A stretch of 59,569 bases of DNA, the filler included, from Dugesia japonica (lineage: Eukaryota), in NCBI GenBank assembly GCA_001938525.1. It is 6 parts of 6 records of this genome, joined end to end, with 100 filler letters (N's around TTAATTAATTAA, not from the genome) between each part and the next. Parts side by side here need not be neighbours in the genome. Positions count along the whole stretch, not along the records: positions 11,785 to 21,819 come from MQRL01512290.1; 5 more parts are not named here. The stretch is one strand, 5' to 3'. Shown here piece after piece: positions 1-34,259 of the stretch (positions are counted from its first letter, which is position 1; each line of letters opens with the position of its first letter). The translations under genes were made by a program, and so were the position numbers. The notes below the pieces were generated by a model. It made no database searches. It was not told the DNA's origin and saw only the letters and a list, made by a program, of their open reading frames with translations.

Positions 1-2911
1 CCATGGACATGTTCTCATTAAAAATTTCTTGTGAACTTTTTTTAATTTCATTCCTAGTTTTAAATATAAATCTAGTGTTGAACCTAGACATACATAATTT
101 TTCTTGTCAAATTGATTTAGTGTTAATTTAATATTATCTTTTGATAATTTCTTTCCAAATGACTTTTGATAATTACTTAACATATCTTCTGTAATATTTA
201 TTCTTTCTGGACATAATGAGAAATATTTAGTTTTATCATGAATCTCCGGTGGATAATCAAGATCAACTTCATAAATATAATTAATTTCATCTGTAGCTGT
301 TTCATATTCCAAATTGTCACACTCGTCGATTTCTCCTGTGGGTAGAGGTCTCGTCATCTAACTTGCATATAAAGAATTTTCATCAATATATTTTATAAAT
401 CTATCTTCAAAATAATCTTCTGGAATATTTTTTCCTTCACTTAATAATTTTAAGAGCTTTTCTTTTTCTGCTTCATTTATTTTTCTATATGGTTCAGAAG
501 ATTTGTGACTAAATACTTGTCTTTCTCCTAAAACTCCAGAATATCCACCTCTAATTCCTTTTTCAATTAATAAGAATGTATCATAAGTTTCTGGCTTCGC
601 AAATTTCAAATTTACATTCACATTTAACATTCCAGTTTCCCATGAATAACCTGGTGCTGTATATGAATAACATGGATCTAATCTAAGAATATTATTTAAA
701 CATGAATTCCTAAAATTTTCTAAAAAATCTGCAAGGATTAAAACATCAAGTTTCATGTAATGTAACATGTACTCCCACATATTTTCAAAATCTAAATAAT
801 CTATTAAAAATTTATCATGTTCTTCATCAGATATTCCTTTTTGTGTTAATGTATTGAAGAAATCATTTTTGGTTGGTGTTCTGTTGGATTTTAATAGTTG
901 TTCTACTTCTTGTATATTTTTCCCTTTTACATATTCATAGGGAAATAATGCCTTTTTAGGTTTTAAATTGTGAGATCTTAATATTGGATAATTATTAGAT
1001 TGTGTTAGTAATATACCCATTGTTTCTACTGGTGTGAAAGGTAATAGTCTGGCTGAATCTAGAAATCTAATATTTTCATATTGAAATGTAATATAATTAT
1101 CGCTTGAATGTGGTATTATTCTTTTTACTTTTCCTGGAAATTTTGTTAATAATTCCCTAAAAAATAAATGATTGTCATAACCTGATGCGTTATGAAAATA
1201 GAATGGGATGAATAATTTTTTAACTGAAAGATCGTTTATGTTACATCGATTACATGAAAACCCTCGAAATTCTCCATTGAAATGATTGTGATCTCTAGCA
1301 TATTTTTTTTTATTTGCTTGGAGCAATATCTACATTTTTTGTTGGGTATAAATGCGCTACGCTGACTTTGGGATAAATCTAAGTGATTACCTCTGGCAAT
1401 CTCTTTTATATCTTCTAATTTTTTATTAATCTCTTCTAAAAAGTTAAAATAATCTTCATAAATATTTTCACCTGAGAATTGATAATATTTGCTTTCTAAT
1501 AAATGTGGATATTCACTGTGAAGATAAACACCTAATGACAAAGCTTTTTGTTTTTTAGTTTTTATATTTGTGTAGGCTTCAAAATCTCCTACAAGCATAA
1601 ATGGAATTTTATTTATCTGATAATGCTTATTAAAATAATAATAATAATTATGTTCAAATATAATATTATTTGGTTTATGATGAATGCACAATTCTTGATG
1701 TTTAATTAATATCGCTTCGCTCGAGTAACAATTCATGCATCTGATACAGGGATAATTTCTATTTCAATTCTTTGCGAAAAATACACATAGGTCTCTACAC
1801 AAAATATAATGTTCTTTATAAACTAAAAGATTACATTTAATTTCTTCTGGTGATGGTTTTGTTGAGTAATGAGAAATGTATAATGGTTCAAGTTGTTCAG
1901 AAGCATTTACTGAAAATACATTTATTTATAAATTATTTAATTTCTCGAATTTGCTTATGTCATCAATGTTCATGGGAAATGTAAAATCTGAATATTTTAA
2001 TTCTGATAAATATGGAATATAATTACTTACACGTGTTGGATGATCAACTACATGTTTATGTGCTAATATTGAATAAAGAAAATATTTATCGTCTTCATTT
2101 TCTATGTTGATTACACCCCGTTTTTTAAATGGTAATTTGCAATATGAACCATTAGCTAATGCATCGTATAAAGAAAGATCCATTTTATAATCAACAATAT
2201 ACATCATTGACCATCCTGAACCTTCACGATCTTTATCTTCAATATATCTTTGTAACTCATCAAATATTTCATGAACACTATTTGATATTTCACTTTCCAT
2301 TGTAAATCTTTTTTCTTTTGTATATGAATATAAAATTTTCTCAACATCCATATTATTTATTTGTTTTGTATATTTACAATTTACTAACATGCTTATAACA
2401 ATCTTTTTTCCATAATTAAAATACTTTGTAACAATATCTCTAACTTCATTTTCAAATGAATAAATGTTTCTAATTGGCATGTCATATGTTTCCTCAACAT
2501 TTTTCTTCATTACCACAGCGCTATCTAAGTAATATTAAATATCATAATCTTTATACATTCTTAATAAATCTCTAATTTCTGTATTATAATTAATTGCTTC
2601 TTCCTCTGGTAATTCTTCAAATAAAACTTTTTTTCTTTTTTTTTATGAATGTCGGAATTGAAATGTGCTTTTGCTAAATTTTGTTTTTTAAATGTTTTAT
2701 TACAAATTTCACATTTCAATGGAACGATTTCTGAATTTCCACAAAGTGTTGAATTTAAATGTTCACGTAAACCATTTTAACTTCTAAATTTTTCATTACA
2801 TTTTTGACATTGAAATGATATTGCTTCATTTCTAAAACAAGTTCTAGATGCAAGATGTCCTTTTAAACCAGCTAAGTTTTTAAATACTTTATTACAATTA
2901 TTACACTGCAT
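1..2911 (-). pseudogene. Protein-primed family B DNA polymerase (Polinton type) with N-terminal zinc fingers and an endonuclease VII-like domain; frameshifted
   Basis: ORFs 1926-2516 (EGSGW, VINIENEDDKYFLYSILA), 1236-1736 (GDFEAY, Exo I) and 358-1326 (RDHNHFNGEFRGFSCNRCN; FHNASGYDNH, Exo II; YMKLDVLIL, Exo III; GIRGG; YIDENSLY, Pol A). ATG at 2911 opens MQCNNCNKVF..H, CQKCNEKF..H, CEICNKTF..H with one in-frame stop. Confidence 0.9.
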
Positions 2912-4639: not shown

Positions 4640-5660
4640 CTCCAGAGTTCGTCAGATTTTTATTGAATAAATTTAGTTTTAAAATCATCTTTTTATTGTG
4701 TTATATACTCGTGTTTTTATTATTTTTTAATGTTCCTCGTAATATTTAAAGTTTGATTTTTCTAAATACTTTTTTGTATATATGGTATTTAGGTTTGTTG
4801 ATTTTTATCCATGTTATTCGTAATGAGCGAAATAGTATCCATCAAATTATATTAATATTTCGATACTTACTTTTTGAATTACTTTTGATATTTTCTAAAA
4901 TAATTACCAAATCAGGGAAGACAGCTGTATATCTTTGGTAGGAAGCATTTCTACCGAGATGATATTTTAACTTTGTATAGTCACTTTTTTTATGCGAGTT
5001 AAATGATACCATGGTTAAAACCATACGAGTTATCTGATCGCAGAGATTTAAACGCTAAATTTTGAAATTTGAGAATTTCTCAAGACAAAAACTCATTTAT
5101 TTCATAGAGGATTAACTATGGCGATTTAAATTTAACATATTTTGAATTAGCGAAAATATCGAAAAAAACACTCTTTGTTGACCAATTTTGAAAAGGAAGA
5201 ATTTTTTAGTAAAATTCTTTGTAAAATACTGGCAAAACCGAAAATGATCGCCGTAAAAGTTTGAATCGATTGATTATTATTATCTATATGTTGAAAAATT
5301 GAAAAAGATTTTTTCAAAAATGTGTGATGTTCACCTGGATTCCCGTAAAAATTTATTTAAAAATTTTTAAATTTTCATATTTTTAAAACCTGGGTTGTTA
5401 ACTTAAAATCATTCCCAACTAAAAAGCCTCCAAAATATTACCGCTTAAAAAGATTAAAAAAATTTTCCCAACTTAAAAGCTTGAAAAATTTAAATATCAG
5501 TTAATACTTTGAAAATCAAATTTCAGCGATTAAATTTAATCTAATGGTGTAATTTGTGTGCAAAATCTTTTCGCAACTAAATACGCATTGAAAATTTAAA
5601 ATTAGTTAAGTAATATTACCTAATATGATGTCATTTTTAAATTCCAACTAAAAACGTTAT
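4640..5660 (+). repeat. Dispersed non-coding repeat, inverted homolog of about 33040-34090
   Basis: For example, 4915-4990 gggaagacagctgtatatctttggtaggaagcatttctaccgagatgatattttaactttgtatagtcac matches the reverse complement of 33747-33820. Confidence 0.75.
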
Positions 5661-6157
5661 GATTAAGTTTTATGACATCCATAATCTTGGGTGGTACTGA
5701 ACGTGTGGTGTTCCAATTTGCAGTAACCATCTACTAAGCTGCATGTAAATTATAGTTATCTGTGTAAATTGTAACCATGTGTGTAGGAGATATGGTAAGT
5801 TATGTGTTGTCAGCTATGAGTTAATTATTAAATTTCCATTTATTTCAGTAAAGCTAATTAAAGTTAATTAATTTCACTAAAGTTCATTGAGTATAATAAG
5901 TTTAATAGATTTATAGTATTGTTGGGATCACCTGAGTTGATGGTGAAAAGAAATGATCGCCTGACAAAGACGCCCCTCAGGGGTATCCCTTCAAGAAGTT
6001 AAATCTAACGTCCCTTTATTAGATATTCAGTGCAAAGCGGTTGACCTCCAACGCTTATATGAGGTACACACTCGTAAACCTTTAATTCGGGCTCCTTATT
6101 TTCTTTTATGACATTATAATCAAAATTAATTAACAAGTAGTTATATTTTATATTATA

Positions 6158-6519
6158 TTACAGGGGATCCATAGCACCCGGGTCTAACCACTAGGTTGGA
6201 TCGTCATCTAAAAAGTTGCAAACAGCTTCATCGTCATTGTCATCCCACAGTTACCATGCAGCATTGCCTAGCTGGCAAGATAGGTCAGCGATGCATCTTT
6301 TCAAAAATTTGATTTTGTTTTGTAGGAGCTGTTTTGTTTGTTCCGCAAGGTCCCCCTGCTTCTTTACAATGACATCTAACTTCTTAATCAACCTATTTCG
6401 TTGAGAAAAGTGTTTCAGCAAGGTGAGTTTGGTCTGTTGTTTGTAGTGCCGTTCTAAAAGGAGTCTCCGGATTATTCTATGGCAACGCCTTAGACTGTTG
6501 GGAAATATAATTCGTGACA
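6158..6519 (-). pseudogene. LTR cassette ORF4, copy 1: predicted coiled-coil protein with Trp/acidic tail; starts at acceptor AG|TG
   Basis: SRIIFPNSLRRCHRIIRRLLLERH...QLGNAAW*LWDDNDDEAVCNFLDDDPT*WLDPGAMDPL*; aligns with 15635-16017; two in-frame stops. Confidence 0.8.
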
Positions 6520-6641
6520 CTAAATGAAATAAGTTATAGTTAATTATGTATGTTACCACTATGAATTGTTAATTAAATAATTAAAGAGGAAATCAGTAGA
6601 GAGAAAAAACATTTATTGGTAATTTACAAGATTAGTAAGCA

Positions 6642-6985
6642 TTAAGATCGCACCGTTTGGGTACCCTTGTCTACCATCAATGGTTTGAGTGGCATCGCCG
6701 TTTTTAACTTTAAAATGTTAATGGCCAGTTTATTCTCTCGGTCTTGGTAGGACCGGGTGATTTCGACGAAAGACTCTACTTGAGCCTTCCATATTCTTTC
6801 CTGGTCATGTGAAGCCTCAGCCTTCTTTCTAAACGCAACACATTTTGACTTCTACCGTTTTACTTTGGCTTCCGCTGAAGCAGTATCAGCCTCTCAACGT
6901 CGCTTTGCTAGCCAAAAAGGTACTATGTTATTTCTGTATCATCGCTTGACTCTCTAAATTTTTTAGTGGAGCTACGAAGAATGCA
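6642..6985 (-). pseudogene. LTR cassette ORF3, copy 1: predicted coiled-coil protein ending in VDKGTQT; starts at acceptor AG|TG
   Basis: LAKRR*EADTASAEAKVKR*KSKCVAFRKKAEASHDQERIWKAQVESFVEITRSYQDRENKL...LMVDKGTQTVRS*; aligns with 15169-15527; AATAAA at 6617-6612. Confidence 0.8.
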
Positions 6986-7252
6986 CTAAAAAAATGTAAA
7001 TTTTACGTTCAACAACAATAAAATAGTTTTAAGACTGATTAATTATTAATTATTACGAGGCCACGTAATATACTTTGTTAATTTTACGGCAAATAAAACA
7101 CTATGATATACAGGAATTCATTTGCTATATTTTACTTTTTTATACATAAATTCACATAAATAGAAGTCTATACTGGAGTTTCGTTGATAGGACAGTGGTC
7201 GACATTCTTATCGTTGCCACTACTGGAGGCATTGCGAACACTCCATAAGGTA

Positions 7253-7588
7253 TCATTTATCAACCAACCTATCCCTACTGAAGTCATGACTGGCATTAAG
7301 GTGGCGGGTGTTCTCTATCCACATTCGTTCGTAAACGGGCAATCTGTTTATGTAATAGGTAGACACCATTCTTGCTGAAAGAGTGATACGACTGCGATTG
7401 GGGCCAGTCCACTGGTAATACGTCTGACGATCAGTGGCGTCCATCATTCCTTCTTCATAGGCAGCACTGTCGGGTAGATTTGACCTCGATATCATTACTC
7501 CGACATTCCGGTTATAAGGATTCTAATATTTCTTAAATATCATACTACCGGTAATACGATCTTGTATCAGCTCCCATTTATAATCCAT
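7253..7588 (-). pseudogene. LTR cassette ORF2, copy 1
   Basis: Acceptor atag|aaATG; MDYKWELIQDRITGSMIFKKY*NPYNRNVGVMISRSNLP...RQTYYQWTGP; aligns with 14575-14922. Confidence 0.75.
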
Positions 7589-7703
7589 TTCTATTATGGA
7601 AAATTAATTTATGATGCAAATTATACTAATGGGTGTGAATTTGTTACATAAAACAAATAAGAATAGATAACTTCTGAAAAGAAAAATAAGTTTTATTTTT
7701 AAC

Positions 7704-7904
7704 TCAATTACGACTAATATATCCAATATCGTCAATATCCACCTTTAAAAGAAGGGGGAACATCTCGAGGAAACACTGGAAATCAGTTTCGCCGGGATGC
7801 TCGATCTCACCGTGTGACAAAATGTGGGTCAGTAATTGCCTTAATCGAGCAGTCTTACGTTGCTTTCGGATTAGTCGAAGTGTGTTTCGCAATACTGCTG
7901 GCAT
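7704..7904 (-). CDS. LTR cassette ORF1, copy 1 (basic N-terminus, unknown function)
   Basis: Acceptor tgtag|ataATG; MPAVLRNTLRLIRKQRKTARLRQLLTHILSHGEIEHPGETDFQCF aligns with 14223-14465. Confidence 0.7.
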   Translation of the reverse strand: MPAVLRNTLRLIRKQRKTARLRQLLTHILSHGEIEHPGETDFQCFLEMFPLLLKVDIDDIGYISRN

Positions 7905-8714
7905 TATCTACAATCATATATTGGACAATAAAATCGTGTTATTCACATGGTTATTAAAATTTAAATTGAGTTCGAGTTACGATGGGTCCTTAATATAAGT
8001 ATGTTTCAAAAATATTAAATGTCTTTGTAATTAATAAACAACCGATCTGGTGTTCATCAGCGTAATAATAAAGATGATATAGATGATTTATTATATGGGA
8101 AATCGCAGTGGTAGTGACATTTCTCTACACCAGGATAATAATAATTAGAATAATATTAATAACAATTATACTAACAATAAGGGCCATAATTCTTAAAATT
8201 ATAATAATATTACTATTAACAATGAAACAGTAATCATATTAATCAATAACGACAAAATTGTCAGGTTTAATAACAATAGGTATAATAATAATTTCGTATG
8301 CAAGCATCTGCAAGTAATAATAAAATTAACATCGTCTTGAGACAGAAATTAACAGAATAAAGTTTTAATATATTAATTTTATTTTTTATTGTATTAAACT
8401 TGTGAATTATACAATGACAACACAGTAACATACTCTTACTTATAATGTATGATTAACTGCAACGGGGAATATAACAGCACGGAATTAATTTGAATTATTT
8501 CTCCTGGTAGTTTAACAATGGATAATCGATTCGTTTAAAGTTTCAACTGTCAATTGAACCAATTATGCACTAATAATTCAACCACTTAAAGTTTTCTGAT
8601 TATTTCTCCACTAGTTGTCTTGATAAAATCACTCTGCTGATCTACCAATTAATAACTGAGTTAACCAGATTAAAATTTTGTTTTTTGAAGTTATTTTGTC
8701 TAAAAATTTAGGGG

Positions 8715-8911
8715 TTTAAATAGCATTTCTGCTTGCACCTCCATTTGTTCGGCATTGGCCGGCTATTTTTAATTCAACTTTCTAGTTTTGTATTGGTTCT
8801 CGTGCCAAGTTTTAGATTTTTTTGTAGAGTTTTGGAACTTCTATTGGTGGTTATTTTTAAGTTATCATGTGATGTTCTGTTTTTTGTTTTATTTTTTCGG
8901 CCCCTTATTGG
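8715..8911 (-). promoter_or_regulatory. LTR U3-like promoter, copy 1: four CCAAT boxes and TATA
   Basis: ATTGG at 8907, 8843, 8792 and 8754; TATTTAAA at 8722-8715; spacing 64/51/38/36. Confidence 0.7.
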
Positions 8912-9739
8912 CCAGTTTTTCAGTTGCTTATAGGGGTCTTTCTGATGGTGATATGATTTTCTCAGTACATAATCTTGTTGCCTCAGGTCTTTCTCCTTAC
9001 AGATTTTTTTTCTACGAGTCTCTGTGATTATTATAGGTGGAGATATTCGCCCAAAACTGATTTTTTCTTACTTTTCCAACTTTTATTTTTAAAATTAATT
9101 AATATTTTTCCACTAATTAAGTATTTTCGGTAATACTTTTCTTGTATTTTTATTAATTATTTCATAATTTTTTTTAATTATTGTAATTATTGTGGGTCAG
9201 ATTTGTTCACCCAAGATCTTCATATTTATCCTCTTGGTATTTTGATATTTTGTTAATGGTATTTCTTATAATTTAACCATAGTGGTTATTTTTATTATCT
9301 TTCTTGTAGCTTTTATATATATGTAATAACTTTTCCATCGTAACTATTTTGTTTTGGCCCCCTTTCCTCATTTATTCTTCGATTCTTGCCCCTAGCTTTG
9401 CTTTTCTTTTTAGACTGAGTTGTACTTATACGGTAGACCAATGGTTATAGTAAAAACTTTGGCAACCAATGAATTAATGGGAACTATAAGTCAATAAATA
9501 CACGAATCTAATGGATATAGTATTAGTATACTATACTAATTATATATACTATACTAATATATATAATATATACTATTCATTTAATATAAAAGCTTTGATC
9601 AAATTTAGGTTTTAATTGTTGACATTGGATAACAAATCGATATTTAGACCTTGTCTTCGTCAGGAATTTACTTGAAAAGTAATAAAATAAATAATAATAA
9701 ATAATAAATAATAAAGTAAAAACTAAATAAATAAATGTA

Positions 9740-10525
9740 ATTCGTAAATACAGAGATACAGTTTGCAGAAGTCCAGAACAAAGAAACTTCAACATGAATG
9801 GTATTGAAGGAATGCAACAGAACAGAAACAATAAAAGACTAGAAATAACATGCTGAAATTGTAACAAAATAGGTCATGTAATCAGAAGTTGCCAAGTAAG
9901 GAAAAAAGTGCTATGCTTGTGGATCTGAACACATTTCAGAATAGACTTATCAAAGTAAGTCTAGTTAAGATGCAACAAGAAAGCCTATTACGCAAAGGAC
10001 TGCTAAAAAATATGAAGAGGCAGTGAAGTTATCAGAATAAAAGTGAACATGCCTAGTTTACGCCTTGTTTTCAACCGTTATACTTGGTCTACTTTGCATC
10101 TTGTCATAGCTTATCTCTTGTCGCTTAACCTCTTCTATCGTCAGACTTTCACAGTCATCTTCTTCGTTTATATCTTTGATAATCTCCGATTGGCCTATAA
10201 TCAATTCTTTCTTTAGGAATTTGTAAACGTTTTCCTTTACATCATTGTACTCCTCTAATTGTTTATCTTCGTTTCTTTTTTTTCTATAATTATTTATACT
10301 ACTTTTACTATAATTAACAAAACTGCAATGTTTTGAGATACATAATTCAACGATCCGACAATCTAGACTTCAGTCGGAACTTGGCGATTTTGGTATTCAT
10401 CTTGATAATGATTTAATCCGTCATTTCAATAGTGACTTTTGTCTTCTCTACATCCACAATTGTTCTCATTTTTCTCAATTGAATTAATGTGACTTCCATT
10501 TCTCTTTGTGTAATTATTCATATTA
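9740..10525. mobile_element. Gypsy gag-pro fragment with internal inversion (same family as 44130-45960)
   Basis: 9740-10055 on plus encodes degraded CCHC knuckles (ITC*NCNKIGHVIRSC). 10056-10525 is the downstream gag-end/pre-protease region on minus, matching 44690-45145. Confidence 0.75.
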
Positions 10526-10670
10526 TTTGTCTGAAATTGTACATTAGTCGATAAAAAGTATCTGAAATTTCATAGTAGTCAATAAATATTTTATGAAATT
10601 GCACAGAAGTCACAAAATATTTTCTGAAATTTTATAGAAGTATTAAAACATTTTATGAAATTTACATGAA
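10525..10670. repeat. Short tandem repeat, about 31 bp unit (ctgaaatttcatagtagtcaataaatattt-like)
   Basis: About five degenerate copies visible. Confidence 0.6.
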
Positions 10671-11728
10671 GTATGCAAGATGAATGAATATTTTGTTGTA
10701 ATACATACACAGTTTGTGTTCAGTATGAGTGTGAGAATAGTGTAATATGAATGCCACTCACTCGACATTCTAATATTACTCAAGGAAATGAAAATTATTG
10801 ATTCTAACCCTGACAAGTTTCACGACCAATTAATAATTTGATGTTTTTACTTGGTAATAATTGGTTTCAATTGTTAAAATTATAGGGGAACATATCTAAA
10901 CATACACAATACTCATTACCATAAAGTCTTAACATGTACAATGCTCACTAACAACAGCTCTTAATATACAGAATACTCGTTATCATCAATTACCTATTGA
11001 TTATTCAGTTGATGGTTTAATCTGTTCATCGCTTATTTCAAATAGTCAACCCTATATTTCATACTAAATATATACTTTGCAACCAATAACCGGTTTTTTT
11101 CACATATTTCCAACTTAATAAAGACATTTTCTTTGCCAATAGATCTTCTTATGTGGTTTATTAACCAATTAATCATCAACTTGTAATATAAATTTATTCT
11201 TTCATTCATTAAAATTCTAACTAATTTTTTATGAACCTGATATTTACCTTTGAAAATAATTAATTAATTAAATTTTCAAAGAAATTCTTATTCAATCAAT
11301 TAAAATTTGGAATCAATATTTACAAAATATACAATATTATATACAAATAATATATACAAAAAATAAAAATATCATAAATTATTGCAGGTATTTTTCTGAT
11401 AATTATTTGAAAATTATTAAATCCATCATACTTATTTTAATCAATCAATCAATATTATTTGCAATATTTTCAATAAATAGTTACAAATTATTTCAAAGTT
11501 TTCAAAACCTAATAAATTTGCTATTATAATTTTAATTTAAGCATATATATATACATGGAATCCAATTTATTTTCCAAATTACATTTTAAAATTTATTCAA
11601 AACAATTCATTTTACCAACAAAAGTATAGTTTTAATTAAATTTCACATTGAAAATTAATCAATTCATCATACTTAATTTATTCANNNNNNNNNNNNNNNN
11701 NNNNNNNNNNNNNNNNNNNNNNNNNNNN

Positions 11729-11740
11729 TTAATTAATTAA
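11729..11740. other. Artificial six-frame-stop contig linker TTAATTAATTAA inside N runs (also 21864, 32335, 41497, 50884; partial at 28797)
   Basis: An identical 12-mer flanked by N runs on both sides at five sites. Confidence 0.9.
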
Positions 11741-11784
11741 NNNNNNNNNNNNNNNNNNNNNNNNNNNNNNNNNNNNNNNNNNNN

Positions 11785-11850
<66 letters not shown>
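11785..11850. repeat. (AAT)n microsatellite (others at 16291-16358, 21758-21819, 41398-41452)
   Basis: Directly visible. Confidence 0.95.
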
Positions 11851-12271
11851 TTTATGAATAATAATACTGTTGGGGTGAAACACCCAATGTTGGAAGAGAA
11901 TTGAGACCAAAGGCTCAAAATATAAACTAATAAAGATGGGTGGATCAAAAAGGAAGTTCATTATGAACAAATGGTGGTAGAAAAAGTACAATAATTTTTC
12001 GGGGCAACAAGTGATCGAAATAACGAGTAACATATACCGAAAACGAAGAAAAATGAGCAGGAAGATCCTCAATAAACAAATGCAATTCCCATCGAAATAT
12101 TAATTAGGAATTTCATTAAAATAAGATAAGGCTTCGATCAAAACAAAATTTATTTGTAAAAAAGTTCAAATTTTCGACAANNNNNNNNNNNNNNNNNNNN
12201 NNNNNNNNNNNNNNNNNNNNNNNNNNNNNNTAAGATAAGGCTTCGATCAAAACAAAATTTATTTGTAAAAA

Positions 12272-12306
12272 AGTTCAAATTTTCGACAATAGTCTTCTTC
12301 AGATAA
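12272..12306 (-). ncRNA. Degenerate minimal hammerhead ribozyme-like motif (Penelope type) in a small insertion
   Basis: Minus strand CTGAAGA-A-GAC-TATT-GTC-GAAA-ATTT; stem I is poor. The insert is flanked by an imperfect duplication taattaggaa...attaaa (about 12101-12120 and 12307-12326). Confidence 0.4.
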
Positions 12307-12576
12307 TAATTAGGAAAGTTATTAAATTAATATTAATTTACAGGAAAATTTTTATTGGAAAAGAATTAATTATTGAAGAAATATTAATTAATTTGTAACT
12401 AGAAAATAAATTTAAATTAGTCAAAAATCGGTTTTTCCTAAATATCTCGGGATCAGTTAACCATAGAACCAAGGGTTAAGAAAATTTAAAAAGAAAATGA
12501 TCAGACAGAATGAAATTCTGTATGAAGAAAATTGTATCACCATCGAGAAGGTTTTTACAAAGGTTCAAAGATTAGG

Positions 12577-12776
12577 CCAATGAGGACCCCGGAAATAAAA
12601 ATAAAACAAAGAAGCAAATCTCACCTGATGATCTAAAAATAACGGCCAATGCGAGTAATAAAACTCTGAAAAGAATCTAAAAATTGTGGCCACTGCCAAT
12701 AAAAGTTATGCATTTCAAACTAAAAATAACCGGCTAATAACAACAATGTCGAGTTGTGTCTGAAAATCATTTAAAA
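12577..12776 (+). promoter_or_regulatory. LTR U3-like promoter, copy 2: CCAAT boxes and TATA-like element
   Basis: CCAAT at 12577, 12646 and 12696; CTAAT at 12734; TTTAAAA at 12770; spacing 69/50/38/36. Confidence 0.7.
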
Positions 12777-13039
12777 GCTCATGAAAAATTAGTATAAAAT
12801 TTATTAATTTTTCGAGTTAATTGCAAGTGTGAAGAATCTATTAGTCTATCTATTAGTTTGAAGAAAAAGTGAAAACTTATTATCATCGGAAGCTAAACGA
12901 GAAGTTAAAGTAAAATTGAAAAGGTTTTATCTTTGAATTAATTGCCATATTTACCAAGGAAAACCAAATCGAAAACCCAACTAATATTCACCAATTTGTC
13001 AGCATCCAACTCGTTGCAGAATTCATATACCACTCTATC

Positions 13040-13046
13040 AGTAAGT
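13040..13046 (+). promoter_or_regulatory. Predicted leader-exon splice donor A|GTAAGT
   Basis: Consensus GTAAGT at 13041 after a cgttgcag..tcat block conserved in all three copies. Counterparts are A|GTAAGA (8439, minus) and A|GTAAAA (31649). Confidence 0.6.
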
Positions 13047-14222
13047 AATGTGTCTATGATTTATTTATTATAATTATTGGTTGAAATGATATAAATGATG
13101 CTAACTCAATAAACATTTAATTTTAGATTTTCATTATTATTATTACATACAACATTCATCAATAAGGGCATACTATTTCAATAGACAGCAAAAGTGCTGA
13201 CCTCGTAAATGGATACATTAGTTCCACCCAACGTATTGTCGATTCTCATTTTGATGAAACGACAAAATTGTGATCTCATGACATACCTGTTTTCTTATCG
13301 ACGAGTAATTTATCCCAGCACTTTGACGCAAATTACACAACATGTAACCTTCTGTGGTGTCATCATAGACATACATCACTACTTATCCGATCAGTAATTA
13401 ATTTATTGCAGTCGTGGTTAAAATATACCCATGAAAGTAGATTGGGATTTGAAGTTGCGCAGCCCCCATGCAGACAATAATCGATCAATTAACACCACTA
13501 CACACAGATTTACTCTCTCGCCAAAATTATACTATTACACAATCATGTTGTTAATGTTTGTGTGTACTTAGTCAGTAAGATAATTGATAACAGAAATTTG
13601 TTGGCGTAACCAAGCAACCACATTGCGCAGTAACCCAAAAACAAAAATTAATCGTTTAACGATAATTATTTAAACTGTATTGTTCGCCCTTTTATGATCT
13701 TTGTCGGATATATATTTCAACAGGATGACTCTTGATAATAGATGTTATCATATTACAGCAACCTGATTGTCAATTATTATAATACCTGTTGCGCTTTAAA
13801 TATTATAAGGCCATTAAGATAAAATTCAATTACGAGTTGTCCGATAAAATTCATCATTACGATTATTATTACTTATTATTATCGGTATTATTATTATTAA
13901 GTATTTTATTATTATTACTGGTATTAACGATACTGTAATTATTAATATCTTAGGTTGACTTTATTAATACCACTGANNNNNNNNNNNNNNNNNNNNNNNN
14001 NNNNNNNNNNNNNNNNNNNNAGGTTAATATTATTACCATCATTCTCATTGAGTCTGCTATTATTATCACAGTTGTTAACCAGATTTAAGATCATTTCCTG
14101 TTACAAACCTAGAGAAGTGCAAGAGTTAGTCGTTATTTAGATCAAACATCATTGACTTCTAATGGCTGATTTTATAAGAGTGTGAAATTAATGATGCTTT
14201 AAAATTTATAATTATTCAGAAT

Positions 14223-14465
14223 ATGTCAACAGTGTTAAGAGTTACGTTACAATTAATTCGTAAACAACGTAGGTCCTCTCGATTGATGCAGTTACCGGCA
14301 CACCTCCTCTCTCGAGGCAAAATATAACACCCCGACGAAACAGATCTAACTTGTTTCGCGGTGATTTTCTACTCGGTGGGTTCAACCGATAAAACGTTGA
14401 AGAAGCACCTTCGTGTATATGAACAAGCATGCTCCTCGTTTTGGTTTTTTCTAACAATTATTTAA
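14223..14465 (+). pseudogene. LTR cassette ORF1, copy 2 (one in-frame stop)
   Basis: Acceptor ttcag|aatATG; MSTVLRVTLQLIRKQRRSSRLMQLPAHLLSRGKI*HPDETDLTCF...; AATAAA at 14466. Confidence 0.75.
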
Positions 14466-14574
14466 AATAAAATTATATAGAAGATCAAGGGGTTATATTG
14501 TGGCTTGTAATAATTGTAATTTTCGCAAAATAAGTTGTAACTTAAATAAAACTTTGCTTTCTTATTTATTTAGA

Positions 14575-14922
14575 ATGGAATTTATATGGGAAAGAGTCAT
14601 CGACAGACGAACGCGTCGTATAATTTTTCGACGACATATAAACCCGCACAACCAAGACGCGGAGATTCTTTCAGATCAGTCTAATCTACTCCCAGTAGAG
14701 GCTATGGTAGCACGGATCCAGAATTTTGGGGAACGACAAAATTACCAGCATTGGAATGGACCGGCGCTTGATCACGTAACTCCATTCTGCTATCAGCCTT
14801 CAGCCCCGTCGCCAGCAGTACAAGCTTTTATCACGAATTTGCTCTGGGGTATTAGAGAACCAACGGGTACTGAGAATTCTGAAAATACAGACCCAATAGT
14901 CAACACGGTGACCGACCAGTAA
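14575..14922 (+). CDS. LTR cassette ORF2, copy 2 (intact, 115 aa, unknown function)
   Basis: Acceptor tttag|aATG; MEFIWERVIDRRTRRIIFRRHINPHNQD...RQNYQHWNGP; homolog at 7253-7588; AATAAA at 14986. Confidence 0.75.
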   Translation: MEFIWERVIDRRTRRIIFRRHINPHNQDAEILSDQSNLLPVEAMVARIQNFGERQNYQHWNGPALDHVTPFCYQPSAPSPAVQAFITNLLWGIREPTGTENSENTDPIVNTVTDQ

Positions 14923-15168
14923 TGGTCAGTGTTGTTTATGGTTTCGCTGTAATCTGAAAAAATAGTTTTTTTTCAAAGGCTTAATAATAAATCCGTTTAA
15001 TTTAATTTTTTTTTCTGTTAGTTAAATTGATTTTTGTTAAAAGAATAAGTATATTTGATGATTCGTGAGTTCCTAATGAATATCACCAGGTGTGAGTAGG
15101 TGTTTCGTGCACTTCGCCAGTTTTTTATTTAGTTTTTCGTTGATTTCGTTTAATGATCTATATTCTAG

Positions 15169-15527
15169 TGCATTTCTATTTGAATCGTGCAGCTGCCCCG
15201 ACCAAGAAAATCCGCGAGTCCTGTGATAATACCGAACCTACATGGGATCTTTATAAACTCGCGAAACGGCGGTGGGAAGCAGACTCTGCATCCGCCGAAG
15301 CCAAAGTCCGTCGTTACAATAAGAAATGCCTAGTTTTTAAGACAGAGGCCGAGGCATCACATAGCCAGGAAAGAGTTTGGAAAACTCAATTAGAATCGTT
15401 TACTGAGATCATCCGGTCCTACCAANACCGAGAACATAAACTGGTTGACGATATCTTGAAGTTAAGGAGGATCATGCCGCTAGCGCNTCTTATTGTAGAT
15501 AAAGGAACCCAAACGACTCGCCCATGA
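15169..15527 (+). CDS. LTR cassette ORF3, copy 2 (open; predicted coiled coil; C-terminal LC8-type KGTQT motif); start codon predicted to form by splicing
   Basis: Acceptor tctag|TG CAT; ...AKRRWEADSASAEAKVRR...LIVDKGTQTTRP*; AATAAA at 15546; homolog at 6642-6985. Confidence 0.78.
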
Positions 15528-15634
15528 ACTCTATCAATTTTATTTAATAAAACCGTCTTTTTGAATTAATTGTTATTACGTTTTGCACCTATATATTTTG
15601 AACTAAATACCGAAATTAATGCATTATAATTTAG

Positions 15635-16017
15635 TGCCACGAATTACATTTCCCGACAATTTAAGGCGTTGTCACAGGATAATGCATCGATTACTGGTAG
15701 AGAGACACCTTAAGCGCCAGGCCGAACGTGAACTTTTGAGATATCTCGTACAGCGCAACTAGTTTATAAAAAAGCTAGATCTAATCATCAAGAAATAGAG
15801 CGATCTAGTAGTCCAAACAAAAAACCTAGAAGACCAGTCTGAACCACTACTTCAGCGAAAGGTAGATTTCCTCAAACAATATATCTCTGACCTATCACGT
15901 CAACTGGGGAATCCGACGTGGGTCCAATGGGACGATAGTTATGACCAAGCGTCTTTTGATTTTTTGGTTACCCATCCGGCCCAGTGGTTAGACCCTGGCG
16001 CTCTGGATGAATTGTAA
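15635..16017 (+). pseudogene. LTR cassette ORF4, copy 2 (two in-frame stops); start codon predicted to form by splicing
   Basis: Acceptor tttag|TG CCA; PRITFPDNLRRCHRIMHRLLVERH...QLGNPTWVQWDDSYDQASFDFLVTHPAQWLDPGALDEL*. Confidence 0.8.
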
Positions 16018-16290
16018 TTCTTGAAATATAATGTAGTTATTATTGATGTGTTGATCGGTTTATTTAGTACAATAATAAGGGAAAATAAGGAACCCGAAAC
16101 AAAGATGTACGAGTCACATCCTCCCGTAAAGTTCGAAGGTCAACCGCTCTGCATCGAAGATCTAACCTAAGGGCGTTAGATTAAATTTTTGAAAGGGATC
16201 CCCTGAGGGCCGTTTTCGCCGGCCAGCTTTTTCGTTTCATCGACGACTCAGGTGGAACCCCAACAATACTAATAATACTAATACTAAGAC

Positions 16291-16358
<68 letters not shown>

Positions 16359-17589
16359 NNNNNNNNNNNNNNNNNNNNNNNNNNNNNNNNNNNNNNNNNN
16401 NNNNNNNNNNNNNTAATAATAATAACTTAAAAATATAAACAGAAAAAATAAAATAAATAATAAAATTTGGATATTATTTGAAGTTTTTATTTTATAATAA
16501 AAAAAGAAATTCTCTATTTTAGGTTTATCAATTGAAATGTTGAATATCATTAAAAATCAGTATAAATAAGTCATATGAATTATATATTAACGCATCAATA
16601 AATTATTCCATACAAAGTGCAATTTGTTGGAAAAAGGCTAGCAGCATTAAATATTGGAATAATTATGCGCAAGAATTCGATGTGTTGATAGAAATGTTTT
16701 ATTCACTGATAATTTTCATATTTATTCATTTTGATCTAGATATAAATATTAGTTTTAATGATAATGTTAAAGCAAATCACTTTCATTAATCAGTACGTAA
16801 AGTCATAGGTAGCAGGTAGTCACAAAGTCGATTATCACGGAAATAAGAATTTCAACCGATCATCAAAAAGATTAAACTGAAAATTGAATTCGGTATTTTA
16901 GAGAATCGATTAAATCAGTGGTGTGATACTCGTGGTCCTAGACAAACATTTTTTGCGTCTCGCCTAGTATATCGGGACACAATAATATATAATAAAATAA
17001 AAAAGCNNNNNNNNNNNNNNNNNNNNNNNNNNNNNNNNNNNNNNNNNNNNNNNNNNNNNNNNNNNNNNNNNNNNNNNNNNNNNNNNNNNNNNNNNNNNNN
17101 NNNNNNNNNNNNNNNNNNNNNNNNNNNNNNNNNNNNNNNNNNNNNNNNNNNNNNNNAATATTTAAAATTTAGATTACTGATTTTTTGACAGTATTAGTGA
17201 GATCCACTGACTAACGAATTTAATCAAATGCGGCCCGAAAGATTATTTAAGTTTAAAACCCCTGATTTAGATCAAAAGATGCAAAGACTATTCTCTATGC
17301 GGGCCAAAATTTTCAATGTTACATCTATCTGGGATACATTCCAAGTACACACTTGATCTTTAAAATTTATAATATTGTAACCAGGTTTCAAATAAATAGA
17401 TATTTTAATAATTAAAATATTTCATTTTAATTTTTTTAGCAATATGAGATATATGTTTGTTGTTAACAAATTGGGAAATAATTAGTGTCCTTTTTGTGGT
17501 TGTCAAACGTAAAATTGAATGTAAGTTATCATTCGTGAGTCGATTACGTTGCTTGGATTGGTTCATATTTATGATAAAGGAAGTTTGTT

Positions 17590-18799: not shown

Positions 18800-21290
18800 A
18801 TTAGAAGATTTTTAAATGATACTTTTAAAGCAAATGACTATTTTGCTTTAGAAATTTTGTGAAAATTTTCAATGATATGTTAATAACAAATGATTATTTG
18901 TTTTAAAATTTTGGCGAAATTTTAAATGAGATTTTGATAACAAATAATTATCTTTAAATTTTCGAATTATTTTTAATGAAAGTTTAATCTAAATTTTTAA
19001 ATTTATTAAAAATAGTTTCCAATTAGAGCATGGAGTTTTAATTTGTTTGAAAAAACAAATAATGATGGATATAGTTTCGTTTTGTGAATAAATCTTTTAT
19101 AGAATCGAGTTTTGATATTAATTATTCGATGAGTACATCAACCTCATCTAACATGGTGGCAGCGGTTAATTTTGCATGCGATCACAGAGAAATTGTTATC
19201 AAAAATATTTTGCAGAGGCGATTATCTAGATAAGTATAATACTTCACATTGCTATTAAGAAAGACCAAGAGCGCTTAATAACATGTATGCTTGATGGAGA
19301 TTTAATGACAACATATGTAAAAACATTGAAGGATGATGACGGATATCAAGAGAGATTGCGATTAGCTTTTGAGAGCAATAGAGATGTAATAAAAGATTTG
19401 CAGAATCTTGTAAGTTTTCAACGTGGAGATGAAGCCCTTGAGTTGTTCTTTAAAAAAGTGAAAGATTTGGTCGATAAAGCTTTAGCAAATGGAGAGCTGA
19501 CGAAAGAAACGCTTTTGTCAAAAATGCTAATAAAATGTGCAAATAGTAAAAAAGAAGAAGAAATTATTATGCAAATATTGAAGAAAGTAGAAGATAAAAA
19601 ACAATATCATTTGTTAAAAGAATAGAAAGAAGAAAACCTATTAACACAGTAAAGAGTTAAGCGGGTGTAACACCTAGAAAACGTACGTGAGATATGATAC
19701 AAAATATCAAGCGAGTTATGAAAAGAACAGAATCACAGTGTTGGACATGTCAGAGTTATGGGCATACCAAAAGATAGTGTCTAAAAAATGCTCATGTGGA
19801 ATAATGGACTTGTCACAAAAAATGGCATTTAAGCAGAAACTGTCCAGACAAAGAAATCAACAAAATGTTTTGGGTGTGATAAGATTGGTCATATCAAAAG
19901 GATGTGCACAGAAATGGTATGTTGTGAATGTAAAATACCAGGTCACAGAGCAGAAGAATGTTATTCGAACATTAGTAAACCTAGACTAGAAGCGAGACGA
20001 CACAATTCTAAACGCGGACAACAAACAAAAGATTAAAGTCGGACCAAACCAATTTATGTCATTTGAGAAGAGGATGGTGAAGAGAATAAATAGATATTTT
20101 CTAGGAGCATAATAGAAAATGAAGACCAGAGAAGAGAATACCTAAAAGGCAGGTCTCCATCAGTAGAGGAGTATGTCGGAGCCATTAACAAAACGAGTTA
20201 CCGTTTGAATATCCTCAAAAGGCCGAGAAATGAAATGAGACGAGTAAAGGGAAAGAAAAGGCTTACAGATTCCTAAAAACAGAAACTTTCAATGATGCGG
20301 AAAAATTTGTTTGCAACATTTCGAAGGCAGATACAGACAGGCGAACGATTGAGACATGCAATGAAGTTTCTAGAAATTAACAAAGATCATAGATTGACCG
20401 CAATTATTCAGAATAATGAAGATGTCTTCATGGTGGATAAATGAGGTATTGAATGCACACACTTAACAAAGCATCGAATAATCATCAAAGGAGGTCCAAT
20501 CAACATAAAACCGTATTGCCAACCAATGAATTCAGAAGAGAAGATTGAAGAGGCCATTAAAAATTTGTTCGATAACGGTATCATCCGTAGGTGTAATTCT
20601 CAATGGAATACGCCATTAATCTGAGTTTGAATTCAGCAAAAAAGGATACAGGATTATGCTTAGACTTTAGACAGGTCAATGCAATAGCAGAAAGACAAGC
20701 TTTTTCTATGCCAAATGTGTAAAATATGCTAGATACTTTGGAAGGTACACATTATTTTAGCTCAATTGACTTGGGAAATGCATTTTATCAAGTGAAACTC
20801 AGTGAAGATTCTCAAGAGAAGAGAGATTTTTCAACTAAACAAGAGCAATTTTGTTTCAATAGAAATACTTTTGGAATTGCAGCAGCACCAGGTACGTTCC
20901 AGGAAATGATGAATAAAGTGATCGGGAAAATAAAAGGAGTAATGGTTTATCTAGATGATATTCTCATATTTACCGCAACAAAGGAGCAACACTTTGAACT
21001 AGTCAATAAAGTATTGACAGAAACTAAGAATGCTTGTCTAAGAGTTTACCTAACAAAATGCCAATTTATCCAAAAGGAGATCAAATTTCTGCGACGCGTT
21101 ATCAGTAAATGACTATTTTTTAAATGAAAGTTTAATCTAAATTTTAAATTTATTAAAAAATAGTTTCCGATTAATGCATGTAGTTTTAATTTGTTTGAAT
21201 AAACAAATAATTATGGATATAGTTTTGTTTTGTGAATAAATCTTTTATGGAAACGAGTTTTGATATTAATTACCCGATGAGCGCTTCAAA
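18800..21290 (+). mobile_element. Internally deleted Gypsy LTR retrotransposon (LTR-PBS-gag-RT-partial LTR)
   Basis: Direct repeats 18967-19142 and 21113-21290; PBS at 19154; gag with CCHC knuckles 19287-20190; RT 20726-21112 (SIDLGNAFYQ, VYLDDILI); no RNase H or integrase. The LTR start is approximate. Confidence 0.88.
19154..19166 (+). other. Primer-binding site complementary to the tRNA-Leu 3' end
   Basis: ...CTAACA|TGGTGGCAGCGGT directly after the LTR end. Confidence 0.8.
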
Positions 21291-23699: not shown

Positions 23700-26400
23700 G
23701 TTGTGTAATGTGTGGTGTTCATTTACTTAATCTATCCTTTTGCTGTTGTGTTGTGGTGATCAATTCAGTATCTCTTGCACGTTTCTTTGAATTGATTTGA
23801 AATAAATTGTCCTCCTTGATTAGTAATTATGATTTCTAGTGGGCCAAATCTACTGATCCACACTTTTTCGACCGCATCTACAATCGCTTTTGTTGTTATC
23901 TCATTTAATGGTATGGTTTCAGGCCAAGATGTCTCACGATCGATGATTTTAAGAATGAATCGCTTTCCTTCACATATAGGTAGAGGTCCGAAAATATTTA
24001 TGTGCATCACTTAAAACAGTCCTAATTCTGGAATTCAGTGGGGATTGCGTATGACGTGTTATTTTTTGTGATTAACATCTGAAGCATTGTCTAATTCATT
24101 CTCGAATGTCTCGATTTCATCTTTGGCCATATGTAACGAGCTCAAATGAGATATGTTGTTTTCTTGCAATGTTGTGCAATCTGTCTTTGTTTATCGTGTT
24201 GATAGCAAAAGTCTGGGTGTGTGGAACTATCTTTAAAGAATCCGTCAATCTCTTTTATTTTTAGTGAGTGATATTGTCTAAGTGAAGCGTCTGATTGTTG
24301 TTCTTTGATCAATTCATCCTTCGTTATTGAACATATTTTGCCTTAAGATAATTCTTCTGGAATTCTGTATAAGAAGTCAGCTACAAAGTTTTCTGACTGA
24401 TAAATTCAATATTACGCGATTGTCTGTTTTTTGGGTTTTCATCAATCAAATATATAGCAGTGGCTTGTTATCTGTTAAAATTGTGAATTTGCTGCTTTTT
24501 AAGTAATGCTTTAAATTCTTGATGGATAGATAGATGACTAAGATTTCATGGACAAACGTTAAATATTTTTGATCTGTTTTATTTAATTTTCATGAGAAAA
24601 ATGCGATAGGTGCAAGTTTGTAGTTGATTTCGTGATTCAAGCCGGCTCTAACTGCGATATTTGATGCTTCTGTTTGAAGTATTAACTTTTTATTTGAATC
24701 AGGTGGAGTCATATTTGTAATTCGATTCAGCGCTGCTTTGATATCCGAGAAAGCCTTTTCATGCTCGAATATCCATTGTAGCTTCCTGTGAGTATATCTT
24801 CTGGATTGAAAGGTATTTGATGGTAAGCTTTCTTCAGGTCAATTGTCAAAAATAAGGAGCTGTTTCTCAAACAATCTAGAATATATGAAATACCAGGCAA
24901 AGGAATGGTAACTGCATTTAGTAGTCTGTAGTCACCGCATGGGCGATAGGTATTATCTTTCTTTTGGACAACAACTAAGGGAGATGCCCAGGCACTTGTG
25001 CTTCTTCTTTCAACTACATTTTCTAGAATTTTGTTGAATTCATGGCGAACTGCTTCAAGCATTGTTCCAGCTAGTCGTCAAGATTTTTGAGATATAGGTG
25101 GTCCAGTTATCATCATTCGAAGTTCTGGTTTGTGTTTTAGATTATAATTATGCGCTGTTCTATTGGAATGATGATTTGTTTTGCAATCCTTGCACTGTGT
25201 TGTTGTCGAGAATAATTTGATTCCCTCGACAGTCTATTTTAATGAAATTAAGTCTAAAGAAGTCTGATCCTAATATCAGTTGACAAACGTCTGCAAAATT
25301 CCACCTGAATTTTTATGGAAGTTCAACGATGTTAAAGCACAAAGTGCGTTATCCTCGAGTTGAAATTAAGCTACTACAAGTTGAAATTAGTTGTTTGGTC
25401 GTTTCACAATGATCGGTATGAAATTGTTTGGCTGGTAGAATACTAATATCTGTTCCTATGTCAATTTAAAATTTATTACCTGGCTTTGATAATTTGATGG
25501 AACAGTGAATATTGTAGAGACATGTTCCGGTTTACGAGTGAAAGGGTTCTCAATCACCGGAAATATTGAGAATCTTTGTCTTTTCCTTGTGTTTGTTTAG
25601 AATTTCAATCGCATGGTTCACGGCATTTGCTCGCTAATTTTCCATATTTGCGTGTCAATAGCAACTTCCATCTGTTGATATTGACTTTTGTGCATGAACC
25701 ATTTTAAGTTGATTTATCTCATCTTGAAGTTGCTGTATTTCGCTTAAATTGGTTTGACTTGAGATGCTGTGTGCAACTTGTGAAGATTCAATTTAGGCAA
25801 GTCTGTCAATGACCAGCTTTCCTTGGAGACGAGATGAGGCTTGATTTTTTGAATCATTGGTCTTATGAAAGCATTTCTTAACATTATGCTATTGTCTGCA
25901 TCTTTAAAATGTGGTTCTATCTCTTGGAAGTGTCTGCGTAATAGTCGAAGACGATCTGACGGTCTTTGATCTCCCAGAGGTTCGAGGATAAACATTTTAT
26001 CCACATGATATGAGGTCGGCAATTTGATACAGTTGATTATAGCTTCTCAAAGATCTGTATATGGTGTTTCGGATTCTGTATCTAACAATTCCTAAAAAGA
26101 AGCCAGAACTGCTGACGGTAAGATAAGATGGAGGTACTTATAATCTTCTCTTAATATTCTTAAAATCCTTAAGATTGCTTCATTTTGTTTAAACCAGATT
26201 GATGGACATTCGAAGTATTGTGGGAATTTTGTAGTTATTTGGTTACTCCCATGTCACCCTCTTCTGACACCAATGTTGAGTTCGTACAATTTTGATTCCA
26301 TAAATACAAGATAAAGATGGCAATATTTATTAAATTCAAATTTCTGCTTTTCTATTAAAATATATTATTTAAACAAAATGAATTTGTATAAAGTATATTT
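23700..26400 (-). mobile_element. Degraded Gypsy LTR retrotransposon (gag-pro-RT-RH-INT)
   Basis: PBS TGGTGTCAGAAG (tRNA-Leu) at 26272-26261 after an LTR end; gag 25744-26250; RT 24727-25062 (WASPLVVVQKKDNTYRPCGDYRLLN); integrase 23765-24010 (HINIFGPLP, IDRETSWPE, TNQGGQF). Confidence 0.9.
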
Positions 26401-30706: not shown

Positions 30707-32290
30707 TGTTGGGGTGAAACACACGTAAAGAAAGGTAATAAAGCCAAAACTCAAAATCAACAAAGAAGAACAATAAAACCAGTAAATTTACTATTAAGGG
30801 AATTCAAATGAAGAAAGCAATTATGATTAAGGAGGGTTATAATGAAAATAATCAGGAAGGAGGAACAAAATACAAGCAAAGGTGGATACAACGAACAAGG
30901 TGACATAAAAAACAACTTACATCCGTATCAGAATTAAAATGAATTAATAAAATCATAATAAAACTCAAGAAAATCAGTACAAGGAAATGCCTAATTAACA
31001 AAAAAAATATTAATTAATTTGGAAAAAAAAGGAATCAGAATTAACCTAAAATCTGTGTTTCATGATTAACTCCGTTTACGAAAGTCGGAGAGAATCCGGT
31101 TAAGAAAATTCAAGAAGAGAATAACAAGAGTCATTAAGATTTATCAAGAAGGAAATCTTACCACTATCTTGAGGATTGCTACAAGGTTTTCTAGGTCAAA
31201 CCAATCAGATACCTAAAAATAAAAAGAAAACAAAGAGAGAACCATCACGTGGTCCTCCAAAAATAACCACCAATAAGAGCCCTCAAACTCTATNAAAATT
31301 CTGGAATTATGGCACCAACACCAATAAAATGCTAAGATTTGGAAACAAAAATAACATCCAATGATAATGAGGCCGGGTTGCATCGGAAAACCCTATAAAA
31401 AGAACTCTGATTTCAGTCATTTTAGCTTATAACCTTCTAAAGCAAAAAAGAACACTAATATATTATACGGATTTTTTCACTTGCGAATTGAATACTACAA
31501 AATATTCAATTTCCACTAATACCGAATTACGAGTCAGCTATCTGAATTCTCTACTCATCAAAAGTCAAGAAACCCTAACGATCTTATTTTCGAATCAAGA
31601 ATTCCATCCGAGCCGTTACAGAAAATCATCCCTAGTTATATACGAAAAGTAAAATGTTTTTCCTATTTTATATTCATATGTATCAATAATAATTTTAACA
31701 AATGAAATTTCGTTGATTTATTTATTTTACAATAAAATTAAAACATTTTTTTTGACTCACTACGATAAACCTGAAAAGTTTAACTTTAATTCTACACACA
31801 AGATTGTAGGTGTGGCCAGTATTGCGATTTACTCCGGAAATATTAGCATTACAAAATCTCTCTGTGCACACCGATTAGTGATCAAGTTAGGGAGTGAAAG
31901 TCCACCCTGTGATAATAGGGGAATGAAAGGGATTATTTCTCGAAACAGGTTTTCATGCACGAGTAGAAGGCATAAATCCAACGAGATGAAAGCGATGGGT
32001 AACGTTTGTTGGCCAGAATAATCCTGGGAAAACACATTGAATTGATTTAATAATCATTATAAAATAAATTCCCATAATTCAGCTAAATCTCTTAGATTCC
32101 GTTGTTGTTAGAATGTAATACGAGTAATTGGTGAGATGGATCATCAACGAATTACTGAATAATTGCTAGTATGCATAACTAGATCTGTACACACATGCCA
32201 GGCAGTATACCAAGGATTGACTACACTAAAAAAAGTTTAAGAAGTGAATAGTTACAATCAAATTCTTACCTGATAATAAATTGCTTAATT
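30707..32290 (+). mobile_element. Giant solo-LTR-like element, copy 3 (5' part, cut by a contig gap)
   Basis: Starts TGTTGGGGTGAAACAC after taatatat-like target (ATAT); CCAAT at 31201, 31270, 31321 and 31358; TATAAAA at 31394; leader block ccgttacag..atcat; candidate donor at 31649. Confidence 0.8.
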
Positions 32291-32559
32291 NNNNNNNNNN
32301 NNNNNNNNNNNNNNNNNNNNNNNNNNNNNNNNNNTTAATTAATTAANNNNNNNNNNNNNNNNNNNNNNNNNNNNNNNNNNNNNNNNNNNNTAGAGTTTTT
32401 CTTCGGGAATAGTCAGTTTGGGTAATTTTTGGACAATTTTAGCCATTTATTTACTCACATTAGTTGATTTGGGTTAAAATTTAAGGAAATTCATGTGAAA
32501 AGTTGAATGTTTTTAAATTTTAAAGTTTTTAACAAATTTTTTATGGAAATATTTTTTAG

Positions 32560-34090: not shown

Positions 34091-34259
34091 GTTGTTTGAT
34101 TATTGACCTGTTTGAAAATACTGAAACAATTATTTAGACTTCATAGAAGTTTTTTCGCTAAGAAGACTATAACATTTTTGTTCTCAGAAAAATCCATTCC
34201 TTATACCTTATGCCTTTGGACTAGTCTTTAAATTTCTCTACAACAGAATTCAAGTCANN

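Follow-up and report, generated by a model that had tools for sequence, protein, structure and literature searches.

We find that ORF3, a small open reading frame carried by a repetitive element of Dugesia japonica, ends close to its stop codon in VDKGTQT, a pattern that exceeds chance expectation and that resembles the anchor by which many proteins bind LC8 (DYNLL1/2, Cut-up). ORF3, a small selected gene without a known family, is probably sited within the LTR of a retrotransposon, and the reading that we favour, at a probability of about 55%, is that its product would be a dimeric accessory protein clamped by LC8. The stretch of DNA analysed, hereafter the window, comprises 59,569 nucleotides, filler included, and holds two copies of the element. 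In copy A, ORF3 (15169-15527, plus strand) is open, with two codons containing N, and begins with a TG directly 3' of a T-rich AG acceptor; in copy B (6642-6985, minus strand) it is broken by in-frame stops and a frame change.

The codons of the motif, GAT AAA GGA ACC CAA ACG in copy A (15498-15515, plus strand) and GAC AAG GGT ACC CAA ACG in copy B (6671-6654, minus strand), are exactly those given in the earlier note on this DNA, and VDKGTQT is present in both copies of ORF3, with three residues remaining between it and the stop. The C-terminal end reads ...LIVDKGTQTTRP-stop in copy A (plus strand) and ...LMVDKGTQTVRS-stop in copy B (minus strand). Numbered from -5 to +2, the LC8-type 8-mer is VDKGTQTT in copy A (15495-15518, plus strand), where it falls within a predicted non-helical tail, and VDKGTQTV in copy B (6651-6674, minus strand), where the +2 residue is a disfavoured valine. 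Over the whole window in six frames, [DE][KR]xTQT is matched twice against 0.05 matches expected from 60 local dinucleotide shuffles; both matches are the homologous ORF3 copies and hence represent one event. For [KR]xTQT, four matches were found in the window in six frames against 0.9 expected, two of them unrelated antisense chance matches (13569 and 32429). The same pattern appears in 0.4% of 200,000 shuffles of ORF3, and the number of matches expected across copy A's four small ORFs is 0.016, falling to 0.002 if an acidic residue is required at -4, all of these chance figures being for a single motif class where a reader could have noticed many others.

Conservation between the two copies is a weaker guide to the motif than it had seemed. 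The earlier count of three silent changes and no replacement in six codons is correct, but it does not indicate special constraint, as the ORF-wide rate gives P values of 0.11-0.21: the two copies of ORF3 agree at 69% of residues across the 85 codons compared, which gives a P of 0.11 for six identical residues at a given site, and three silent changes out of three have a P of 0.21. A run of seven identical residues anywhere in ORF3 has a P of 0.95, and a second such run is present. Identity in the motif (7/7) compared with the remainder of ORF3 (52/78) gives a P of 0.07, and compared with the remainder of the tail (5/12) a P of 0.016, the latter being a post hoc contrast chosen after the data had been viewed. 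Copies A and B provide one comparison only, in which conservation of the motif is not clearly above that of the whole of ORF3; because the entire frame is similarly constrained, conservation gives no reason to set the motif apart.

Sequencing reads from relatives of the element bear on the same question. Nine contigs from one DNA run cover the motif in copy A (15488-15575), and the eight that are shown carry 0-5 differences over 37-56 nt; one covering contig, at a depth of 44, has zero differences over 15499-15540. In a matching of contigs to copies A and B that counts sequences at least 80% alike and carries no information on per-position differences inside the motif, coverage on copy A stops ~20 nt past the ORF3 stop codon (one DNA run), and summed depth on copy B falls from ~740 in the bin holding the motif to ~15 in the one that follows it, 3' of the stop (two DNA runs); several relatives therefore have the coding end in common but not the non-coding sequence. 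A further 52-56 contigs cease to match copy B ~50 nt before the motif, so that most of the family is unseen there. Partial RNA reads from relatives match copy B in two runs (47 and 7 reads), and some relatives' RNA reads map to mid-ORF3 of that copy in both directions. None lies over the copy B motif, although partial reads from relatives are present elsewhere on the element, and none lies over the copy A motif in the 25% of one run that was examined. Two further runs, one of them from a second organism, also matched nothing at the motif, which carries no weight as evidence.

ORF3 was under purifying selection, with a pS of 0.78 (saturated) and a pN of 0.18 between the copies. In copy A the open frame extends from 15153 to 15527; in copy B, two in-frame stops interrupt the block that is colinear with copy A, and another stop and a frame change lie upstream, so that copy B cannot make the protein. 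The ATG at 15153 was considered as the true start and rejected, as it is missing in copy B and sits within the acceptor tract. Both ORF3 and ORF4 start with TG right behind a T-rich AG in both copies, and a candidate leader donor, A/GTAAGT (13040-13046, plus strand), would supply the A of an A/TG start; a further candidate donor lies at 13575, and a candidate in copy B at 8439. Alignment of the donor regions of the two copies is not significant, with 32 of 500 shuffles reaching an equal score, and no RNA junction from the leader donor to ORF3 was seen. A candidate poly(A) signal, AATAAA, is located 19 nt past the ORF3 stop in copy A (15546-15551, plus strand) and 25 nt past it in copy B (6617), with a chance of ~0.06 per copy. 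The same hexamer follows the stops of ORF1 and ORF2 in copy A (14466 and 14986) and of ORF1 in copy B (7697), which suggests that each small ORF has its own poly(A) site. The TG starts, candidate donors and AATAAA signals fit a putative spliced leader that would complete the start codon. No homologue of ORF3 was found in a set of 5.8 billion proteins (near and longer lengths) or in 1.84 billion representatives, among viral contigs, metagenome contigs or phages, or in PDB sequences or Pfam, and a homologue search with ORF4 also found none.

An AlphaFold2 model of ORF3, computed from the two-sequence alignment, places helices at residues 31-68, 72-90 and 94-107, at a low confidence (mean pLDDT 53.5). 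The second and third helices reach a pLDDT of ~60, and residues 108-124 are modelled, again at low confidence, as non-helical, with a pLDDT below 50 from residue 111. Residues 72-107 (15366-15473, plus strand) form a predicted amphipathic helix and a candidate self-association segment: residues 77-110 present an a/d stripe, L-F-I-Y-E-L-I-L-M, that includes a glutamate in the helix core, and have a helical periodicity with uncorrected P values of 0.03 at 3.6 residues and 0.07 at 3.5 residues. The N-terminal helix (31-68) showed no hydrophobic periodicity. Residues 1-91 gave low recognition (1283) in the ESM Atlas, with unnamed clusters at 0.89-0.91 and the coiled-coil families TACC_C, DUF3496 and HOOK at 0.88, which are leads only. 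The label of coiled-coil protein, given to ORF3 previously, is weakly supported: it agrees with one amphipathic helix before the motif and disagrees with the lack of periodicity in the N-terminal helix and with the overall pLDDT. The evidence extends to an amphipathic helix that may be a short coiled coil.

The element that carries ORF3 has, in copy A (11868-16265, plus strand; 4.4 kb, N gaps included), a solo-LTR-like form with four small ORFs. It starts with TGTTGGGG and ends with CCCCAACA, termini of the TG...CA type with an 8-bp perfect inversion, and it is bounded by a 4-bp target duplication, ATAC, at 11864-11867 and 16266-16269, in AT-rich, low-complexity flanks. No pol-type ORF was found inside copy A, and no paired repeats around a gag-pol were found in the window. 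From these sequence features, copy A has the anatomy of a solo LTR and is likely the LTR of a retrotransposon; a reading of the element as the cargo of a DNA transposon was rejected, as the termini and the 4-bp duplication fit an LTR better. Copy B (5920-9360, minus strand), ~64% identical to copy A, has a 3' end of CCCAACA followed by ATAC; its 5' end was not found, nor was the remaining half of the repeat hosting it. That repeat (4658-5915), into which copy B was apparently inserted, is very abundant and occurs again at 33021-34074. A 2.3-kb portion of copy B matched ~1,890 and ~1,850 contigs in two DNA runs, with more than half of these under 90% alike, and the repeat family is therefore large and diverged. 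A third element (30707-34330, plus strand) shares its first 16 bases and ~400 nt of 5' homology with copy A, and it ends in CCCAACA; it is without ORFs 1-4 and contains the other repeat at 33021-34074. There were no Rfam matches in 5000-17000, and the element is not described in the accessible portions of PMC13524379 or bioRxiv 2023.12.22.572568.

The four small ORFs occur in the same order in both copies, and ORFs 1, 3 and 4 have pS values of 0.7-0.9 against pN values of 0.18-0.23, with ORF2 far more diverged. ORF1 (copy A, 14223-14465, plus strand, with one internal stop; copy B, 7904-7704) has a pS of 0.73 and a pN of 0.23 over 48 codons, and ORF2 (copy A, 14575-14922, plus strand, open; copy B, from 7588, broken) is 32% identical. 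ORF4 (copy A, 15635-16017, plus strand, with two internal stops; copy B, 6519-6158, minus strand) has a TG start after an acceptor. Its helical periodicity is stronger than that of ORF3 (P 0.001-0.014), making it the more clearly amphipathic of the two, and its tail is conserved, acidic and Trp-rich (WDD...WLDPGA). The block following ORF4 (16075-16265, plus strand; 6109-5920, minus strand) is well conserved DNA, with a pS of 0.47 and a pN of 0.23, and attracts a few RNA reads from relatives; it may represent R/U5 sequence or else another small ORF, the fifth.

The window as a whole consists of AT-rich eukaryotic DNA full of repeats, among them remnants of gypsy, Polinton-like and mariner elements. 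A broken, Polinton-like, protein-primed DNA polymerase B (1-2534, minus strand; Pfam DNA_pol_B_2, E 1.4e-6) has an Endonuclease VII-like start, and a segment at ~35563-35895 (minus strand) resembles a piece of DNA polymerase B by eye, without a DNA_pol_B_2 Pfam match. Decayed Ty3/gypsy pieces (RT, protease) at 19230-21112, 24727-26046, 44532-45460, 48434-48895 and 9785-10523 are not linked to the LTR-like element. A Mariner/Tc1-type DDE_3 transposase fragment (57117-57434, plus strand; E 2.1e-6) lies amid inverted repeats at 55242-59569, and a 179-bp tandem repeat of ~3 copies occupies 53164-53747. Identical or 98% duplicates flanking 50-N gaps at 12122-12289 and 34790-35395 are likely scaffolding artefacts.

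The rules for LC8 clients, as set out in the accessible text of PMC6607443, call for a TQT anchor at -1, 0 and +1, a large or positive residue at -3, a hydrogen-bonding residue at -4, no bulky residue at -2, no internal proline, and a non-hydrophobic residue at +2, with P, D or E favoured. VDKGTQT agrees with them in its anchor and in its D at -4, K at -3 and G at -2, and it lacks an internal proline, the nearest being at -9 in copy A and -8 in copy B. It has V, G and TQT in common with the phage-display optimum VSRGTQTE. By our by-eye count, which covers Tables 1 and 2 of that paper (the supplements of PMC6607443 and PMC12057147 list further binders and non-binders and might alter the figure), 7/7 [KR]xTQT peptides bound LC8 by ITC, and 0/18 non-binding TQT peptides had K or R at -3. 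Among the peptides given there, the closest to ORF3 are those of the clients SLC9A2 (EKGTQT), which bound LC8, Bim (DKSTQT) and ZFPM1 (DKGVQT). With T at +2, as in copy A, MUC4 (TQTT) bound and EMSY (also TQTT) did not, and the DAZL peptide VDRSIQTV, which is similar to copy B, failed to bind (PMC6607443). ORF3 is like these clients, so far as the accessible text describes them, in having an 8-mer in which D (-4), K (-3) and G (-2) precede a TQT anchor, set in a predicted non-helical stretch, here a tail adjoining the predicted amphipathic helix; it differs in having T or V at +2, where P, D or E is favoured, in its single site, and in being known here from sequence alone. ORF3 thus resembles a TQT-type LC8 client in its sequence features. 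The proposal that the element recruits host LC8 is, given the very good match to the rules and the expected setting, plausible, with dimerisation the better supported purpose, although conservation of the motif lends it no special weight.

If ORF3 does encode an LC8-clamped dimer, its production and action might proceed as follows. The LTR would give rise to a short, spliced and separately polyadenylated message for ORF3, from which a helical product of ~119 residues would be made. One LC8 dimer would then grip two ORF3 tails as β-strands, stabilising a weak pairing of the adjacent ORF3 helix in the way that it does for its cellular clients, and the resulting dimer would serve the element as an accessory adaptor. 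This scheme draws its support from the motif, the predicted adjacency of the helix, the selection on ORF3, and the element's termini and target duplication.

Several other readings have to be weighed against it. The motif may be incidental, a possibility that we take seriously without favouring it: VDKGTQT could have arisen by chance or serve another partner, and be kept by constraint on ORF3 as a whole, in which case LC8 binding in vitro may not matter. Conservation that does not exceed the background and the other identical run of seven residues fit such an origin, as does the +2 valine in copy B, and a scan of many motif classes will sometimes yield an event of 0.2-1.6%. The secreted chemokines CCL2 and CCL7 set a precedent, for they bind LC8 although they are secreted, and a perfect motif can therefore be incidental. 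Both have a C-terminal DKxTQT and bind LC8 in vitro, according to the accessible part of PMC6607443. An incidental origin accounts less readily for the favoured D at -4 and K at -3, for the position in a non-helical C-terminal tail, and for VDKGTQT being an island of identity within a less conserved tail. A different origin of the frame itself, as part of a longer captured gene, of which it would be an exon or a remnant, so that the motif would either lie away from the C-terminus or go untranslated, is hardly credible. It would explain why there is no conserved ATG in the exon, why an acceptor-like AG precedes ORF3 in both copies, and why no ORF3 transcript was seen, but the stop is at the same position in both copies and is followed by AATAAA, copy A has no donor at the ORF3 stop, conservation ends at the stop, and no longer homologue was found in the protein search, the last of these being weak evidence.

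Two further readings accept the binding of LC8 and differ in its use. By analogy with transposon silencing in flies, ORF3 might be a decoy or competitor that takes LC8 from, or joins, an LC8-dependent host silencing complex, thereby protecting the element; we regard this as quite unlikely. Panoramix, the protein on which the analogy turns, is a fly protein, and an LC8-dependent silencer is known from the fly, not from this host; LC8 is also abundant, which would make a single site a poor sponge, and the RNA signal is low. What recommends the idea is that transposon silencing in Drosophila requires LC8/Cut-up, which acts through TQT motifs to dimerise the Panoramix complex (PMC7861614, accessible part), that nuclear PIWI represses planarian LTR elements (PMC8532177), and that an LTR-borne gene would presumably have many expressed copies. 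Even less probable, in our estimation, is a dynein cargo adaptor that would move particles or RNA of the element along microtubules, by analogy with foamy virus, in which the LC8 region of Gag is needed for transport of incoming capsids (PMC3705263, accessible part). The dynein intermediate chain and the clients use the same two LC8 grooves, the LC8 literature, in the parts accessible here, describes a dimerisation hub rather than a cargo adaptor, and ORF3 has no capsid- or RNA-binding domain recognised by Pfam. The role in trafficking suggested in the earlier note finds no support here, and that literature disfavours it.

An LC8-clamped ORF3 dimer would have parallels among viruses. As described in the accessible part of PMC8615749, LC8 orders rabies P and binds Ebola VP35 beside their multimerisation segments, and these proteins, together with HPIV3 P, are parasite-encoded, each with a single LC8 anchor next to a helical segment for multimerisation, as is predicted for ORF3. 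They serve RNA viruses as polymerase cofactors, and their binding to LC8 has been measured (PMC8615749); ORF3, by contrast, is an orphan of 119 residues carried by an LTR-like element, and no sequence relation to the viral LC8 clients was found. Foamy virus is a reverse-transcribing element that engages LC8, as is predicted for the element carrying ORF3; its structural Gag binds LC8 through the coiled coil CC3, while ORF3 is a separate small LTR-borne ORF with a TQT motif (PMC3705263, accessible part). Among planarian elements, the giant Gypsy-like LTR elements Burro/GYPSM1 are also large and also have accessory ORFs (PMC6431247, accessible part); gag-pol is not linked to the LTR-like element in the window, and its family is therefore not established. 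Neither LTR-borne small ORFs nor LC8 motifs figure in the accessible accounts of Burro/GYPSM1 and springer (PMC6431247; bioRxiv 10.1101/2023.08.03.551782). The springer env start codon is completed by splicing, as proposed for ORF3, with springer supplying AU and the proposed ORF3 leader A (bioRxiv 10.1101/2023.08.03.551782, accessible part). Panoramix-Cut-up (PICTS/SFiNX) of Drosophila offers TQT-LC8 dimerisation in a transposon setting, as would ORF3, but Panoramix is a host silencing factor with two motifs and ORF3 is on the transposon's side (PMC7861614, accessible part).

Hijacking of LC8 is already well known for RNA viruses and foamy virus Gag, and a survey of titles and abstract openings, outside subscription papers and repeat-library notes, turned up no transposon-encoded accessory protein with a TQT motif. 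It is conceivable, though unlikely, that the LTR would hold several accessory genes as a cassette, each spliced separately, and that one of them would encode an LC8-clamped dimer hindering a host complex that depends on LC8 for silencing or cell control; a counter-defence protein of a transposon would then use the same TQT-LC8 logic as transposon silencing in the fly. If the motif is incidental, VDKGTQT is an ordinary short-motif match within a decayed repeat. If it is real, it would offer a first clue to the function of an orphan gene cassette that is borne by the LTR of a very abundant family of repeats.
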